DNA from: a virus
Taxonomy: Duplodnaviria; Heunggongvirae; Uroviricota; Caudoviricetes
IMG/VR virus record: IMGVR_UViG_2698536458_000008
Coordinates: 1 to 4,989 of that record
DNA length: 4,989 nucleotides
Direction: 5' to 3' (one strand)
Both the position numbers and the translations under genes were made by a program. Under the pieces are notes generated by a model. It was not told the origin of the DNA. It saw only the letters and a program-made list of their open reading frames with translations, and searched no databases. Below are positions 1,114 through 4,989 of this stretch, piece by piece (the first letter of the stretch is position 1; each line of letters opens with the position of its first letter).

Positions 1114-2916
1114 TCATTTGTGACCTATTGCACATGATGGCATCCAGTCTTCTGAATCCTCTGTCAGGGTCACATTTGAACGCAAACCGTGCTTCGTTTT
1201 CCGTTTCATATACTCCCTGCCATATTCCGCCATTGCCCCCGGCATATCTTTACCGAAGCGCGTCAGTGTTACAGGTTTACCGAATCCGTGTGCCCTCATA
1301 TATGCCAGATAGGCGTGATAAAGATACCTGCGCGGACTGAACGGAATAATTTCGGCATTACCCACTAACAGACCATCACACATTACCGACGACATGAGAT
1401 AGCCGCAGAAGTCCACCAGCGAATCGCCCTCGCGTTTTATCACCAGAGCTTCTTCTGATTTCTGCTGCTCATACAGCAGGCGTTTAGCTTCGTCCTGGTC
1501 AGAAAAACGAGTAAGCAGGTGGCGAATCACAACCGCCAGCTCTCCTTCTATTTTTTCTGCCAGCATGGGGTCGCGTTCGTTCTCCGGTACAACTTCCGAA
1601 AAATTGAATATCACCCGACGACGTGAGATCCCCCCGCTGCGGTCACTGAATGACATGGCGTTATTGTTAACCGCCAGCACTACTGCCGGAATACGCGTTG
1701 AGTAGGGGGCTTTGTGTTTCGGGTCAATTGCCACCTTGTCACCGCCTGTAATGGCCTTAATCCCTGCCCCATCACCAGCGTAGCGGGTCATATCCGGCAT
1801 GATAATCAGCGAAAAGCCAACCACTAACGCGCGTTCCCTTGCATCTTCCAGCGCCTTCATGCTTGCCGATACTGTGTTGGCCTTACCCGCCAGCATGGTG
1901 CAAATCTCCGCCATCACGCTTTTACCACTTCCCCCTGGACCTGTTACCTCAATGAATAACTGCCAGTCGTACCGGTTCGCCAGCACCATGAATAATACAG
2001 CCAGTACGCGATCCGCCTTGCGGTCATTCTCAGCCACCGAACGGCGTAACCACTTCCAGAAATTCGGCGCATGTGTTGCCAGCGTTTCCCCCTCTGCTGG
2101 TGGGCTGAAAGGTAATTCACTGGCAATTAACAACCAGTCGTTTTTGTTATGCTCCCGAAAATTACCTGTTCTGGTATCAAATACCCCGTTACTGAATCCA
2201 ATCAGGTTACGGGCTGTATTCCCCATTACAGGCAAACTTAACTTCATGGTATCGACCGCCGATTTAATGGCGTTCTGCGAATAGCTGATCTCCGCATCAA
2301 TGAAAATCTGTGCCATAGCTCGCTGTAATTCTTTATCCTGTACTGGCTCCCATACAACGCCGTTGTAATGGTGAACAGTGTCAGAGTCAGCATGAATCGC
2401 CAGTTCACCGCCATAATGTGCCAGGAGAACTTCGCCGCGTTGACTTGCTCCCATCTGGTTAAGCGCCAGTGATGAAGCGTTATCGTCTTTTACCCGCTCT
2501 TTTTTCTTTACAGGCAGTTCAACTACCTTTTTCTTTTCCGCCTGCTCTGCCCGTTCACGTTCCAGATATTCGCGCCAGTTCTCCCGTTTCTGGCTGTGCA
2601 TTCCTTCAGGGTAATAATCAGCATCCCTGACACCTGCCGCTGCCAGTTTCTGCCCGATGGTATTAACAAGCCCCGGACGCAATAACCCCGCCTGGTAGAG
2701 ACGCACCCGATAGCGTCCGTCCGGTACGATTTGCAGCTTATCCAGTTCGGCAAGTTGTTGTTCTCCAAGCCAGACAGGAGGCACGCTGTCGCCAGCCAGT
2801 CGCCCGTCCTGTTCCTGCCACTGCTTCGCATGTGCCCACGCATCATTACCCGCAAAAATGATGACTTCCGTCATTTTGTCACGCGGCTGGTGTTTTAAAT
2901 TTGGCGCTTTTTTCAT
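1114..2916 (-). CDS. Replication initiator: P4-family primase / D5-like SF3 helicase, 600 aa
   Basis: Walker A FIEVTGPGGSGKSV, Walker B-like LIIMPDMTRYAGD, SF3 motif C-like VVLAVNNNA, and a D5_N-like region upstream (VLLAHYGGELAIHADSD...HYNGVVWEP). Preferred start is the ATG at 2916 (MKKAPNLKHQ...), with GGAGAGAG 5 nt upstream and an ATGA overlap with the upstream gene; the ORF track extends 5 codons further to a GTG at 2931. The cognate iteron array lies directly downstream. Confidence 0.9.
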   Translation of the reverse strand: MKKAPNLKHQPRDKMTEVIIFAGNDAWAHAKQWQEQDGRLAGDSVPPVWLGEQQLAELDKLQIVPDGRYRVRLYQAGLLRPGLVNTIGQKLAAAGVRDADYYPEGMHSQKRENWREYLERERAEQAEKKKVVELPVKKKERVKDDNASSLALNQMGASQRGEVLLAHYGGELAIHADSDTVHHYNGVVWEPVQDKELQRAMAQIFIDAEISYSQNAIKSAVDTMKLSLPVMGNTARNLIGFSNGVFDTRTGNFREHNKNDWLLIASELPFSPPAEGETLATHAPNFWKWLRRSVAENDRKADRVLAVLFMVLANRYDWQLFIEVTGPGGSGKSVMAEICTMLAGKANTVSASMKALEDARERALVVGFSLIIMPDMTRYAGDGAGIKAITGGDKVAIDPKHKAPYSTRIPAVVLAVNNNAMSFSDRSGGISRRRVIFNFSEVVPENERDPMLAEKIEGELAVVIRHLLTRFSDQDEAKRLLYEQQKSEEALVIKREGDSLVDFCGYLMSSVMCDGLLVGNAEIIPFSPRRYLYHAYLAYMRAHGFGKPVTLTRFGKDMPGAMAEYGREYMKRKTKHGLRSNVTLTEDSEDWMPSCAIGHK

Positions 2917-3267
2917 TTCTGCTCTCTCCACGCGGCAATCATGTTTTTCAGTTCCTGTAGTTTTTTATCAACATCCATACATGACACATGGTTATTTCTG
3001 GAAAGCGGGATTTCCCGCCTGAATCTGCTAATAAAGATCTCCACGTTCAGCGAACTATGAAATGAATAGCCATCACGAATAAAATACACACGGTCAAACA
3101 TCAGTTCTTTTACCGTTACTCTGTTACCGTTCNNNNNNNNNNNNNNNNNNNNNNNNNNNNNNNNNNNNNNNNNNNNNNNNACCGTTCTTATCCAGATAAA
3201 TAGCGCCGGGGATAATTTTGGGGTGTGCATAACCGCTGGCAGTCAAGCCAGATAAATACGTTCTCAT
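2913..3267 (-). CDS. Hypothetical small protein immediately upstream of the primase gene, interrupted by a 48-N run (3133-3180)
   Basis: C-terminal part after the gap (NGNRVTVKELMFDRVYFIRDGYSF...AAWREQK) is in the ORF-track frame and its stop overlaps the primase ATG (ATGA at 2913-2916). Before the gap, the frame from the ATG at 3267 reads MRTYLSGLTASGYAHPKIIPGAIYLDKNG; the 7-mer accgttc flanks the N-run on both sides (3126-3132 and 3181-3187), and removing the gap plus one copy joins the two frames into one continuous protein (...YLDKNGNRVTVKELMFD...). Alternative start in the ORF-track frame at 3230. Product unknown. Confidence 0.45.
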
Positions 3268-3273
3268 GATTAT

Positions 3274-3594
3274 TTATCTCAGATTTGAATCAGTATTCGC
3301 TTTCTCTATGGCATTTAATGCATCTGTGGCATTTTCAATGGTGCACCGTAACGAAATATCAAACTGCCCAAGCATTGCCAGTAACAAGCCAATATTACCC
3401 ATGTCAATGCGCATAGCCTTTTCGTCATATTCCTCATTTTCTGACGCATGCCACATCAGGCTACCAATTGACGCAACAGCCATTGATATATTGTCAGTAG
3501 CCCCATCCGCAGCGGAATAAACCTTTTTAGCAATATCATGCTCACAGTTAAAATGCGGATTAATCAGGTACTGGTAATTGGTCATGTCAGGCAT
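3274..3594 (-). CDS. Hypothetical acidic protein, 106 aa
   Basis: ORF with a perfect AGGAGG Shine-Dalgarno 6 nt upstream of the ATG at 3594 (MPDMTNYQYLINPHF...); the ORF-track start at 3636 is 14 codons further upstream and lacks an RBS. TAA stop at 3274-3276. Start overlaps the preceding gene's stop by 8 bp. No family recognised by eye. Confidence 0.6.
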   Translation of the reverse strand: MPDMTNYQYLINPHFNCEHDIAKKVYSAADGATDNISMAVASIGSLMWHASENEEYDEKAMRIDMGNIGLLLAMLGQFDISLRCTIENATDALNAIEKANTDSNLR

Positions 3595-3784
3595 GGCACA
3601 CCTCCTGACGAATACGGGCGGCGAATACAGCAACACAACCTGACGGGCAACGGTTACGCGCTTCGCGTTCCGTCCAGGCGGTTACGTGGATGATTTGAGA
3701 TTCTCCGGCACTCAGGGCCAGAAAACGCCACACAAAGGCCGTTTGTGTGTGTACAAGGTGTGGTATATGATTTACGGCAACCAT
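3587..3784 (-). CDS. Small protein, 65 aa, possibly Icd-like (host cell-division inhibitor family); first gene of the leftward early operon
   Basis: ATG at 3784 preceded by GAGGAG with a 5-nt spacer (the ORF track extends 33 codons further upstream into a hairpin region without an RBS). Sequence MVAVNHIPHLVHTQTAFVWRFLALSAGESQ...TEREARNRC...VFAARI resembles, from memory, the Icd-like proteins annotated next to alpA in P4-like islands; that assignment is unverified. Confidence 0.5.
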   Translation of the reverse strand: MVAVNHIPHLVHTQTAFVWRFLALSAGESQIIHVTAWTEREARNRCPSGCVAVFAARIRQEVCHA

Positions 3785-3813
3785 AACGGCTCCTCGTTTA
3801 CGTTGTTGGTTAG

Positions 3814-3850
3814 AAGCCCTGCGAGTGGTAACGACACTTGCGGGGCTTCG
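3814..3850. other. Long stem-loop (15-bp stem, 7-nt loop) in the regulatory region between the divergent early operon and the RHH gene
   Basis: GAAGCCCTGCGAGTG (3814-3828), loop GTAACGA, CACTTGCGGGGCTTC (3836-3850). As plus-strand RNA all 15 positions pair (13 Watson-Crick plus 2 G-U); as minus-strand RNA 13 of 15 pair. It lies in the 5' leader of the 3784->3587 gene. Confidence 0.4.
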
Positions 3851-3885
3851 TCGTTTCAATTGCTGAATTGCATGTATCAGCACTT

Positions 3886-3957
3886 GTGGTATTCACATTA
3901 CATTTAGGTGAATACCATTTCAAGTCTTTTTTGGTATTCACTTTTGTATTACACTGC
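3886..3957. promoter_or_regulatory. Operator-like repeats (GGTATTCAC) in the promoter region upstream of the RHH gene
   Basis: GGTATTCAC at 3888-3896, its inverted copy GTGAATACC at 3908-3916 (11-bp spacer) and a second direct copy at 3933-3941, plus a degenerate GTATTACAC at 3947-3955, all within about 100 bp of the RHH start codon in an AT-rich region. Confidence 0.45.
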
Positions 3958-3984
3958 ATCCCGTTATTAATGGGAGGTGCAAAC

Positions 3985-4290
3985 ATGTCCAGGAGTTCTG
4001 TTAACAATAAGTCACAGCAACTGAATGCCAGATTTCCACATGAAGTAGTGAGTGGCATTGAGGCATCCCTACAGCCAGGGGAAACTAAAGCGAATTTTAT
4101 AGTTACGGCTGTACGCGGTGAGATCGCCAGGCGCCAGGCAGAAGGAAGTGGAGAAAATCCCCTTGTGTCTTCACTGGATGCCCTAGCTAATGTCGAACAA
4201 ATCGGCATCAAGGCAGCGGAGGAAATCGGGCAGCTTATCACCGTTGCACGCGAAGAACTCCAGCGCCGCAAGGCCAAAGAATCAGAATAA
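3985..4290 (+). CDS. Ribbon-helix-helix (Arc/MetJ/CopG-like) DNA-binding protein, 101 aa; candidate repressor of the element
   Basis: GGGAGGTG Shine-Dalgarno 5 nt before the ATG at 3985. N-terminus KSQQLNARFPHEVVSGIEASLQPGETKANFIVTAVRGEIARRQ fits the RHH beta-strand/helix/helix pattern (compare Arc QFNLRWPREVLD). C-terminal ~50 aa is helical and charged. Opposite orientation to all flanking genes. The ORF-track version starting at 3838 is an unsupported N-terminal extension. Confidence 0.7.
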   Translation: MSRSSVNNKSQQLNARFPHEVVSGIEASLQPGETKANFIVTAVRGEIARRQAEGSGENPLVSSLDALANVEQIGIKAAEEIGQLITVAREELQRRKAKESE

Positions 4291-4347
4291 TCACTATCAG
4301 CGCCGTGGTGTGAGGAACTCCGGCGCATTGCTTTACAGGCGCACACA

Positions 4348-4524
4348 ATGACCAACGAAGAATCAACCAAAAAAACATCACCTGCACGAAAAAGACGACG
4401 CAGAAAGAAAGAGCATGAATCAGAACGATTCGCGCCGTGTTCTTTTGCCCTTGAGAAGTACCTTAAAGAATACTCATCAAAGGAGAGAGCTTCGCAGTTA
4501 TGGCAACGCACTGAAACAGACTGA
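4348..4524 (+). CDS. Putative small basic protein, 58 aa, downstream of the RHH gene (uncertain)
   Basis: My own translation of ATG 4348 to TGA 4522-4524: MTNEESTKKTSPARKRRRRKKEHESERFAPCSFALEKYLKEYSSKERASQLWQRTETD. Same strand as the RHH gene and upstream of the plus-strand terminator, but no convincing RBS; below the ORF-track length cutoff. Confidence 0.25.
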   Translation: MTNEESTKKTSPARKRRRRKKEHESERFAPCSFALEKYLKEYSSKERASQLWQRTETD

Positions 4525-4588
4525 TAGCATTGCCCACCAGCCTGATAGCGGCTATCATTGACATGCTTATGTTTAGTGTTTCCAAACT

Positions 4589-4618
4589 GGCGACCGCCCC
4601 AGGTCGCCTTTGTTTTAT
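4589..4618 (+). terminator. Rho-independent terminator for the plus-strand RHH transcript (possibly weakly bidirectional)
   Basis: GGCGACC (4589-4595), loop GCCCCA, GGTCGCC (4602-4608), followed by TTTGTTTTAT. On the minus strand the same hairpin is followed by a poorer U-tract and lies just downstream of the AlpA-like stop. Confidence 0.65.
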
Positions 4619-4635
4619 GTGTCATATGCTCCCCT

Positions 4636-4845
4636 TTACACTGCCTTACCTGAATTAATGCGATCCCGGCTTTTAACCCATTCCATAACCTCGGACAGCA
4701 GCCACCCTACAGAACGACCGCCCAGATTAAGACGTGACGGAAAGCGCCCTTTTTTCTCCAGTTCGTAACGTGTAGTGCGGCACACTCCAGTTAACTTACG
4801 ACATTCATCCTCACGGATTACGCGATCTTCATTTATTTCACGCAT
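4636..4845 (-). CDS. alpA: AlpA/Vis-family phage transcriptional regulator (excisionase-like HTH), 69 aa
   Basis: MREINEDRVIREDECRKLTGVCRTTRYELEKKGRFPSRLNLGGRSVGWLLSEVMEWVKSR contains the AlpA-type motif (compare E. coli AlpA ...LGVKSVGWIEAEIDEWL). ATG at 4845 gives the family-typical ~70 aa; the ORF-track start (GTG at 4932) adds 29 residues of doubtful coding quality. Confidence 0.8.
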   Translation of the reverse strand: MREINEDRVIREDECRKLTGVCRTTRYELEKKGRFPSRLNLGGRSVGWLLSEVMEWVKSRDRINSGKAV

Positions 4846-4989
4846 ACAAAAACCTACATAAAAATTACGTATATAAACTTTTCTCTTAGCTGTAGATATA
4901 TGAGATCGGATATTACTTAGATTCTTTTTCACCTCTTAAATTAAAAACACAACCATGCTGGTAATGACTCCAACTTATTGATAGTGTTT

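Follow-up and report, generated by a model that had tools for sequence, protein, structure and literature searches.

RESULTS

Genes between alpA and the leftward operon

The window, i.e. the whole stretch of 4989 nt that was analyzed, carries a plus-strand unit between alpA (4636–4842, minus strand; Pfam Phage_AlpA, E 1.6e-16), with which it is convergent, and a leftward operon whose first member is an Icd-like gene of 65 aa (3587–3784, minus strand; NCBIfam NF033153, 64.8 bits), the proposed target of repression. The ORF call places a gene for a 101-aa protein, here termed the RHH gene, at 3985–4290 on the plus strand. Its Shine–Dalgarno sequence GGGAGGTG (3972–3979, plus strand) can be read directly from the sequence and is separated from the ATG at 3985 by 5 nt (3980–3984), or 7 nt if counted from the GGAGG core, and all related loci show a GGAG element at the matching position before the RHH gene. 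The ORF with a strong ribosome binding site described in the initial annotation was therefore borne out, and so was the dedicated terminator: an intrinsic terminator (GGCGACC-GCCCCA-GGTCGCC followed by TTTGTTTT; 4589–4616, plus strand) closes the unit and faces the end of alpA, with an equivalent hairpin in EcCICFT073. Between the RHH gene and this terminator lies a second ORF (4348–4524, plus strand), which encodes a basic protein (KRRRRKK) of 58 aa and matches phrog_21027 (E 7.8e-13). This ORF is kept in E. coli-type islands, with a clearly related 57-aa homologue in EcCICFT073. In the locus comparison it was missing from the loci of Photorhabdus, Xenorhabdus, Klebsiella and Enterobacter, and elsewhere unrelated ORFs take its place; it is accessory. 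The earlier description of a self-contained unit holds for the gene, the repeats and the terminator, but a second ORF lies inside and the left boundary is the edge of a recombination cassette.

The 101-aa protein is a member of the YlcI/YnfO family, as the NCBIfam profile YlcI_YnfO_N (NF041551) matches residues 9–50 over all of its 42 positions with 60.3 bits, compared to a curated cut-off of 30. In the AF2 model of the N-terminal domain (pLDDT 83) an extended N-terminus is followed by two helices, which is the strand–helix–helix topology of about 45 residues expected of RHH (Arc/MetJ) proteins. The domain spans approximately residues 10–54 and consists of the strand SQQLNARF, a helix (19–27), the turn G32-E33-T34 and a second helix (35–54). 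Polar and hydrophobic residues alternate in the strand as in other RHH proteins, with R16 being invariant, while the turn reads G-E-S/T family-wide with an invariant E33 and fits the G-x-S/T/N turn before RHH helix 2. In hhalign, QQLNARFPHEV falls in register with QFNLRWPREV of Arc. Weak matches to the RHH-type Pfam family PSK_trans_fac were observed in 27 of 37 family members (E 0.018 for the window protein), remote members weakly match Pfam RHH_1 (E 0.0029), TacA1, CB_ParB_C and RHH_5, and two UniRef homologues are titled ‘Arc-like DNA binding domain-containing protein’. The HMM searches thus gave a clear match to YlcI_YnfO_N, but the curated RHH models (Pfam Arc, RHH_1 and others) gave sub-threshold matches only, none of them significant. 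Foldseek against the PDB with the full-length and N-domain models and a sequence-profile search of the PDB found nothing, and no more than 2 proteins came up when homologues were sought with the N-domain alone. Taken together, these data support the earlier proposal; the protein very probably belongs with the Arc-like RHH DNA-binding proteins and would dimerize and contact DNA in the manner of this fold.

The C-terminal ~50 aa had been left without assignable function. We found that residues 59–100 are modeled as one long helix with a pLDDT >90, and in the family alignment this helix is kept across specificity types (see below); it is most likely an oligomerization or partner-binding domain. 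A natural 59-aa form of the RHH protein without this helix is widespread and occurs, for example, in EcCICFT073. Short forms of 55–70 aa that likewise lack the helix and resemble the EcCICFT073 variant are YlcI and YnfO of the E. coli K-12 prophages DLP12 and Qin, which share the 42-aa N-terminal domain family with the window protein. Their genes presumably adjoin terminase genes and do not lie in an int-alpA-primase island. We found no assigned function for YlcI/YnfO of DLP12 and Qin in the literature, and a 2026 survey lists the family only as ‘prophage-associated protein’.

The element is a Gram-negative PICI

The genes are arranged as in EcCICFT073, in the order int, alpA, small genes, pri-rep and ori iterons, and the agreement extends to the YlcI-like gene, the small ORF and the Icd-like gene; int itself lies beyond the window, as an IS1 end breaks in at 4960. 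The iterons adjoin the primase gene, between this gene and the SSB-side genes, and differ in sequence from the operators described below. We observed neither psu, delta, sid or epsilon nor an alpha-type primase in the window or in full-length related islands, which carry DUF4222, SSB, PerC and capsid genes instead of the P4 set, and blastn of 3200–4989 gave no match in a phage collection that included P4. The view of the element as a P4-type replicon with a distinct immunity solution is therefore not borne out. It is an EcCICFT073-type Gram-negative PICI, here in Shigella sonnei, and the RHH/operator module is the norm in this family: the model PICI EcCICFT073 carries it, annotated features place it in E. 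coli 042 too, and the exact proteins of the module are found on at least 1000 Shigella/E. coli contigs. A count of E. coli genomes is unusable as a prevalence, since the query included 30 nt of IS1. For comparison we used about 35 related loci from eight genera, in which the RHH gene and its operators recur.

Repeats lie on predicted divergent promoters

Three exact copies of the 10-mer TGGTATTCAC occur within 3887–3941 and none elsewhere in the window, compared to a chance expectation of 0.01 per window; three copies were reached in 0 of 200 shuffles. The operator-like repeats of the initial annotation are confirmed in this respect. The predicted leftward promoter P_L of the Icd-like/replication operon (3895–3923, minus strand) consists of a -35 element TTGAAA (3923–3918), a 17-nt spacer and a -10 element TAATGT (3900–3895). 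Operator O1 (3887–3896, plus strand) overlaps the end of this -10 element and the predicted leftward start, a position conserved in all loci, and the inverted copy O2 (3908–3917, minus strand) fills the P_L spacer beside the -35 element. O3 (3932–3941, plus strand) lies in the -35/spacer region of a candidate rightward promoter P_R of the RHH gene, whose putative -10 element TATTAC (3947–3952, plus strand) aligns with TATAAT/TATACT in relatives. P_L, with its -10 element TAATGT, was too weak to pass a consensus promoter scan of the window, and P_R has a weak -10 element and no good -35 element there. Nearly all of 16 distinct loci nevertheless share the P_L layout (TTGAC/TTGAA, 17–18 nt, TAnnnT, mostly TAAnnT). 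A fixed scaffold of four site positions recurs across the loci, the fourth of which (O4) is occupied in most relatives and absent from the window. Within 5–19 kb of each locus, the type-specific 9-mer is confined to its own site set. An RNA hairpin formed by the O1/O2 inverted repeat was considered and rejected because of its AT-rich sequence and its place upstream of the leftward start predicted here, and because it leaves the phased third and fourth copies unexplained. The only Rfam matches in the window, sub-threshold miRNA models on the iteron and operator inverted repeats, were taken as chance.

The position of the sites bears on two other roles for the protein. RHH proteins such as ParG, omega and CB_ParB coat repeated sites in an architectural or segregational function, and weak CB_ParB_C matches in two remote members as well as the multiple, phased sites would fit such a role. 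However, only 3–4 sites are present and they are locked to promoter elements, no partition ATPase occurs in any locus examined and the element is chromosomally integrated, so we regard this explanation as extremely unlikely. The module could also be an autoregulated accessory unit, for example an RHH antitoxin with the 58-aa protein as toxin, that acts on its own promoter only and plays no part in the life cycle; RHH antitoxins (M. tuberculosis Rv0298; PSK_trans_fac) are the known systems for comparison. A type II toxin–antitoxin pair has a conserved adjacent toxin gene, whereas the ORF downstream of the RHH gene is variable or absent, and the RHH gene and operators persist where the 58-aa ORF is missing or replaced. 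Moreover, the operators span a divergent promoter, with two site positions on the conserved leftward promoter and not on that of the RHH gene, and we detected no PADLOC match and no toxin or defense family in the window. An antitoxin-like unit is thus unlikely.

Repeat type covaries with the RHH strand

In the ~35 loci the repeats lie over back-to-back promoters and their sequence changes with the type of the RHH beta-strand. Each beta-strand type has its own half-site, and this pairing is kept between distant genera: it links E. coli to Photorhabdus and Xenorhabdus, Shigella and E. coli to Phytobacter, and Enterobacter to Klebsiella. A Mantel test of the covariation gave r 0.715 (p 2e-4), a correlation that may partly reflect linkage because the operators adjoin the N-terminal codons. 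A simple residue-to-base recognition code across types was not derivable, because the half-site orientation differs between types. Operator type is uncoupled from AlpA, the leftward gene, the C-terminal domain and the replicase type. The operators and codons 1–40 of the RHH gene (3825–4105) form an exchangeable specificity cassette: compared to locus L019, the window is 92–100% identical on both flanks and 32–57% identical within the cassette, while the same-type locus L011 shows the reversed pattern. The repeats thus overlap a promoter and covary with the residues predicted to read DNA, as expected of a repressor and its operators, and across genera they behave as cognate operators to which the RHH protein would bind.

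We also considered that another island protein, namely an AlpA/Vis-type excisionase, the integrase at arm sites or a replication initiator, binds the repeats. Binding to repeated sites close to promoters is known for P4 Vis and AlpA-type proteins. AlpA is moreover a known activator of Gram-negative PICIs that acts on downstream PICI genes (PMC6092414). However, AlpA is almost the same in the loci L003 and L010 and yet their repeats differ, while the window and L011 have the same repeats and unrelated AlpA proteins; the same repeats stand alongside D5-type and DUF927-type primases, and the ori iterons differ from them in sequence and place. AlpA, integrase and replicase were rejected as repeat binders, since none of them follows the repeat type, and the RHH N-domain is the only type-specific coding segment nearby. 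A binder other than the RHH protein is therefore very unlikely.

A candidate antisense RNA and absence of P4-type RNAs

The left edge of the interval (3814–3850) is not an operator. It holds a separate conserved hairpin, a GC-rich stem–loop with a U-rich tail (3813–3858, plus strand) that is stable only as plus-strand RNA and is a candidate terminator of a short antisense RNA. RNAalifold gives 13 pairs, of which 7 show compensatory changes, with ~25 G.U cells compared to 0 A.C cells; in the 18 distinct sequences compared, the plus strand always yields the more stable fold except for a single sequence with equal strands, and the fold z-score is -5.8. A candidate antisense promoter (TTGTGT, 17 nt, TATGAT; 3743–3771, plus strand) lies upstream, and 11 distinct sequences have a TAnnnT hexamer at the position of its -10 element, synonymous codon positions included. 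The predicted RNA (~3778–3858) would cover the start codon (3782–3784) and the Shine–Dalgarno sequence (3790–3795) of the Icd-like gene, and the hairpin suggests that a short RNA of this kind is made.

This conserved, strand-specific hairpin with its upstream -10-like hexamer raises the possibility that leftward control is mainly RNA-based, through the antisense RNA ending at 3858, an intragenic hairpin in the Icd-like gene and antitermination by AlpA, with the RHH protein as a minor modulator or setting the balance between antisense and own promoter. A terminator-like site on the minus strand (3749–3720) within the Icd-like ORF points in the same direction, AlpA alone induces EcCICFT073 (PMC6092414) and AlpA family members can antiterminate (PMC9371919). 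On the other hand, the antisense promoter is weak and lies within coding sequence, conservation of the intragenic terminator does not extend to the CFT073-type leader and the operators sit exactly on the leftward -35 and -10 elements, which argues for control at transcription initiation. We therefore consider predominantly RNA-based control to be rather unlikely.

The initial annotation had stated that P4 holds RNA-based immunity between vis and the early genes. This is correct: in P4, which served as positive control, Rfam C4, isrK and c4-a1b1 are found between vis and epsilon. The window, in contrast, shows no match to C4 (RF01695), isrK (RF01394) or c4-a1b1 (RF03163) at E≤1, whereas some other Gram-negative PICIs carry these RNAs (PMC10111431). 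The interval between vis/alpA and the early operon is equivalent to that of the P4 CI RNA and P1 C4, and the next gene is Icd-like, which is also the case in P1 immI. The statement that a protein replaces RNA immunity stands insofar as P4-type RNA is undetectable, but an RNA-free switch is doubtful because the conserved plus-strand terminator points to an additional layer of antisense RNA. We gave up the equation of the Icd-like ORF with the P4 cI region, as BLASTP gave no match to the annotated P4 ‘cI’ CDS and blastn of the region gave no match either.

DISCUSSION

We estimate at roughly 65% the probability that the interval is a PICI regulatory switch in which the RHH protein acts as a Mnt-like repressor of the leftward operon, with binding and repression deduced from the arrangement and covariation of the sites. 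Since the repeats overlap the conserved leftward promoter, a protein-based divergent switch, as initially proposed, is the best reading, but its closest design appears to be P22 immI with Mnt and not lambda (P22 immI references are listed in PMC2629481). In the proposed mechanism, RHH dimers would read the 10-bp TGGTATTCAC sites via the beta-strand residues Q12, N14 and R16, and the long C-terminal helix would join dimers bound about two helical turns (21–24 bp) apart. With O2 in the P_L spacer and O1 over the -10 element and the start, bound protein would shut off leftward transcription and thereby silence the Icd-like, DUF4222, primase-helicase and SSB genes. O3, and O4 in relatives, would mediate autoregulation at the promoter of the RHH gene itself, and the cis-antisense RNA ending at 3813–3858 may add a translational block on the first leftward gene. 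Relief of repression could come from a helper-phage factor that acts on the conserved C-terminal helix or from convergent transcription driven by AlpA.

Like P22 immI, the window combines a small RHH protein with the Arc-type strand motif QxNxRxPxEV, a gene divergent from an operon in which an antirepressor or Icd-type gene comes first and operators that overlap the divergent promoter. Mnt also has a C-terminal helical segment, which in the window protein would serve oligomerization, and the sar antisense RNA of P22 is a possible parallel to the candidate RNA over the ribosome site of the first leftward gene. However, hhalign probabilities of 5.7% to Arc and 1% to Mnt do not demonstrate membership by sequence, and the sites are spaced by 21–24 bp compared to about 11 bp within Mnt/Arc operators. 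The host element is a satellite, the controlled operon is a replication module and the specificity resides in exchangeable cassettes, which also sets the window apart from P22. A second comparison is provided by the Stl/Rpr master repressors; Stl proteins are larger, of the HTH type, and helper-phage proteins relieve their repression. In Gram-positive PICIs (SaPIs) the stl/rpr gene is divergent from the replication operon and lies between the integration and replication modules (PMC6092414). The RHH gene has the same position and the same proposed role, but its product would have an RHH and not an HTH fold, and activation by AlpA is also required.

Within the window, the weak -10 element of P_L, the missing O4 and the poor P_R count against the repressor reading. 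EcCICFT073 stays helper-dependent and is induced by overexpression of AlpA alone (PMC6092414) although it has the 59-aa form without the helix, so that the main off-switch may be something other than the RHH protein. In PICI papers these islands are described as unidirectional and their repressor as "unclear". A more far-reaching reading, which we put forward tentatively and hold to be somewhat doubtful, is that the RHH protein is the missing master repressor of Gram-negative PICIs and would keep the replication operon off without a helper. The exchangeable cassettes, at least eight, would then define immunity groups among co-resident islands, the type-independent C-terminal helix would be the handle for helper-phage- or AlpA-dependent relief and the antisense RNA would form a second, P22 immI-like layer. 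Such a two-layer switch would have been overlooked because the small genes are missing from early annotations.

PICIs transfer virulence and defense genes at high frequency. The islands studied here consistently have a divergent RHH gene and, on the promoter of the replication operon, operators that match its type, with EcCICFT073 offering a natural C-terminal deletion form of the RHH protein. The module is very common but unstudied and may supply the repressor believed to be missing from Gram-negative PICIs. If it is a repressor, Gram-negative and Gram-positive PICIs would have a divergent regulatory layout in common, the cassettes would predict which islands coexist or cross-repress, and the induction of these islands by helper phages would become directly testable.

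Kind of element and gene content

The initial annotation had placed the DNA in a P4-type element. The element is not P4: family searches of the window found none of psu, delta, sid and epsilon, and the genes follow the order of EcCICFT073 (NC_004431, 1377930-1388654), the model Gram-negative phage-inducible chromosomal island (PICI); the phage collection gave no blastn match to the region. The minus strand carries an SSB gene (146-568), an 81-aa ORF, a D5/P4-type primase-helicase of 605 aa (1114-2931), small ORFs, an Icd-like gene (3587-3784) and alpA (4636-4842). Between the 81-aa ORF and the primase-helicase lie at least eight iterons (CTGTTCACC/GGTGAACAG, 861-1090), likely the replication origin, whose sequence is unrelated to that of the operators; sub-threshold Rfam miRNA matches at this region were rejected as spurious. 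ORF 2913-3230 (minus strand) is partly hidden by a run of 48 N (3133-3180), and in relatives the gene at its place encodes a DUF4222 protein. The window ends (4960-4989) in the IS1 terminal sequence GGTAATGACTCCAACTTATTGATAGTGTTT, which has 49,032 matches in E. coli genomes, located under annotated IS1A transposases, so that genome match counts for the window query are inflated by this end. Since IS1 has inserted upstream of alpA, the integrase side of the island is separated or lost here.

The plus-strand unit described by the initial annotation was confirmed as an observation, and every feature it named is real: the RBS GGGAGGTG (3972-3979), the 101-aa ORF (3985-4290), the operator-like repeats and a dedicated terminator (4589-4616). 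Its composition had to be corrected, as a 58-aa ORF (4348-4524, plus strand) had been missed and a separate hairpin (3813-3849) wrongly included. The product of this small ORF, which lies downstream of the 101-aa gene, is basic and conserved (SPARKRRRRK...ERFAPC.FALE.(Y/F)LKEY) and matched no known family; variants of 57, 67, 69 and 84 aa share a FALE/FALD-type motif, and in the related loci compared none was found outside E. coli/Shigella-type islands. Directly after the stop codon of the 101-aa ORF, a plus-strand hairpin (4300-4336; GCGCCG at 4300-4305 pairing with CGGCGC at 4321-4326, then ATTGCTTT) is kept in E. coli-type loci, also where the small ORF is missing downstream, and may be a partial terminator separating both ORFs.

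The 101-aa protein

The protein belongs to the YlcI/YnfO family (NCBIfam, 60.3 bits, cut-off 30), named 'prophage-associated protein' in a 2026 survey; PHROGs labels its group 'unknown function' only. HMM searches reflected the proposed ribbon-helix-helix (RHH) fold in part: no Pfam RHH model passed the threshold for the protein itself, but weak matches to RHH families recur in homologues, with the antitoxin family PSK_trans_fac matched by 27 of 37 and RHH_1, TacA1, CB_ParB_C and RHH_5 by remote family members. A toxin-antitoxin-like accessory module and a partition-type role of the protein are weaker explanations than a repressor. Using hhalign, residues 9-30 are in register with Arc residues 6-27, and Q12, N14 and R16 stand opposite Arc Q9, N11 and R13, the base-contacting residues of Arc. 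The G32-E33-T34 turn agrees with the RHH G-x-S/T motif, and two homologues are named 'Arc-like DNA binding domain-containing protein' in UniRef. We consider the predicted RHH fold probable; membership of the Arc or Mnt family was not demonstrable by the hhalign comparison.

An exhaustive profile search among 1.84 billion proteins returned only 84 clusters at 50% identity, made up of about ten long forms and many of 55-70 aa. At least 1000 Shigella sonnei contigs encode proteins identical to those of the window, and at least 874 contigs encode a 59-aa form. Among the long forms there is almost no variation at residues ~40-101, and residues 1-35 sort into discrete types with the beta-strands QQLNARF, QMKNIRF, QMTTLRV, KQISIRI, QLTTVRV, QSLTARI, QVKNVRI and QALAARV.

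Proposed operator sites and their covariation with the protein

We compared the interval in about 35 loci from E. coli, Shigella, Enterobacter, Klebsiella, Phytobacter, Photorhabdus, Xenorhabdus and a Serratia-type metagenome contig, and found the YlcI-like gene and a scaffold of sites to recur across them. Wherever the flanks suffice the gene order is constant: int and alpA (accompanied by Bro-N genes in some loci) come first, then the YlcI-like gene, oppositely oriented, and after ~185-200 bp of intergenic DNA a leftward operon. This operon holds Icd-like or Ash-type genes, small ORFs and DUF4222, together with a replicase of one of several kinds and SSB. In two loci phage late genes directly adjoin the island, namely a gene for the terminase large subunit beside int (L014, 7335-8306) and a capsid gene fragment (L024, 4664-4939), which fits the helper-embedded PICI configuration of PMC10111431.

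Sites are fixed near -99, -76, -53 and -30 relative to the ATG of the YlcI-like gene. A plus-strand TCAAG kept across loci corresponds to the minus-strand -35 element (TTGAC or TTGAAA), which a 17-18 nt spacer separates from a TAnnnT-type -10 (TAAnnT in most cases); O2 lies within this spacer, O1 abuts the -10/+1 region, and on the rightward side O3 and O4 flank a TATAAT or TATACT box. The window contains three exact copies of TGGTATTCAC, O1 (3887-3896), O2 (3908-3917, inverted) and O3 (3932-3941), where 0.01 are expected by chance and none of 200 shuffles reached three; O4 was not found in its intergenic region. The predicted leftward promoter consists of TTGAAA (3923-3918) and TAATGT (3900-3895), and a weak candidate rightward box is TATTAC (3947-3952).

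Each beta-strand type goes with a half-site of its own: QQ[LI]NARF with GG[TG]ATTCAC, QLTTVRV with GTGTGTTTC, QSLTARI with GTGTAAGAC, KQISIRI with TGTGATTC, Q[MV]KN[IV]R with GGTGTG[TC]A, QMTTLRV with GTGA[GT]ATA[TC]AC, and QALAARV and QALKARV with other half-sites. The pairing is common to E. coli and Photorhabdus/Xenorhabdus despite a diverged inter-site spacer, to Shigella/E. coli and Phytobacter, and to Enterobacter and Klebsiella; a Mantel test gave r 0.715 (p 2e-4), a figure inflated by relatedness. The sites are uncoupled from replicase type and from AlpA: loci L003 and L010 share AlpA and differ in sites, and the reverse holds for the window and L011. Against L019 the window shows 92-100% identity at 3625-3825 and 4145-4300 and only 32-57% at 3825-4105, hence neither the leftward gene nor the C-terminal domain is coupled to the sites. 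Operators and codons 1-40 thus make up an exchangeable cassette resembling a phage immunity region.

Because operators and codons 1-40 are adjacent, part of the covariation is linkage. Even so, conserved scaffold separates the type-specific sites, and each of these is repeated 3-4 times per locus, a pattern that calls for a type-specific binding protein; the sole candidate is the RHH N-domain. Binding of the repeats by another protein is a weaker explanation. The type-specific 9-mers have no further copy elsewhere in each locus.

A predicted RNA layer

Rfam searches gave C4, isrK and c4-a1b1 matches in P4 itself and none in the window. The initial annotation's interpretation is supported in part: the RHH protein and its operators stand, but the proposal that the protein acts instead of RNA is doubtful, as a conserved plus-strand hairpin suggests an antisense RNA beside it. 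This stem-loop (3813-3849, with a U-rich tail to 3858) is kept in all loci, has 13 predicted pairs with 7 compensatory (RNAalifold) and matched no Rfam family. Its alignment holds ~25 G.U and no A.C cells, so the structure is selected as plus strand; that strand folds more stably in all but one of 18 distinct sequences, where both are equal. Upstream at fixed distance, within the opening codons of the leftward gene, a TAnnnT hexamer is retained at synonymous positions (window: candidate promoter TTGTGT, 17 nt, TATGAT, 3743-3771, plus strand). Stem-loop, tail and hexamer together suggest an unannotated candidate RNA of ~80 nt (~3778-3858; fold z -5.8), antisense to the SD and start codon of the Icd-like gene. 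Control mainly by RNA, to which this conservation might point, is a weaker explanation than control by the RHH repressor.

On the minus strand, 35 nt inside the Icd-like ORF, lies a terminator-like hairpin (CACACAAACGGCCTTTGTGTG then GCGTTTTCTG, 3749-3720), whose 3' half and T-run encode a conserved FVWRF motif. It is kept in E. coli loci with the same Icd-like type, not in the CFT073-type leader, and could be an attenuator to be passed by AlpA-type antitermination.

Proposed mechanism and meaning for PICIs

The evidence best supports a Mnt-like RHH repressor that would occlude the leftward promoter and autoregulate. Dimers bound 21-24 bp apart would be joined through the C-terminal helix. RHH repressor-operator switches are a known class; among known designs P22 immI (Mnt/Arc and sar RNA) comes closest.

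EcCICFT073 has the same module, with the widespread 59-aa form of the protein and, for the small ORF, a homologue of 57 aa, and in E. coli 042 the module genes are annotated at the corresponding place. The EcCICFT073 protein (NC_004431, 1380473-1380652; locus L037, 8474-8653) has lost the C-terminal helix in frame (...EIKRRQ|RRKAKEQE), and its operator is the near-palindromic GGTGTGGCCCAC in two direct copies; experiments with this island may under-report repressor function, if any. The founding PICI paper described Gram-negative PICIs as 'transcribed unidirectionally', with AlpA as activator and the global repressor 'unclear' (PMC6092414), and a later one described a dynamic zone in which some islands carry Bro proteins and C4/isrK RNAs (PMC10111431). 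In the literature covered, which is incomplete and may miss earlier work, we found no paper giving a YlcI/YnfO protein a function. For PICI biology the module is of interest because Gram-negative PICIs had been believed to lack a repressor, and it supplies a concrete candidate for that role that can be tested.
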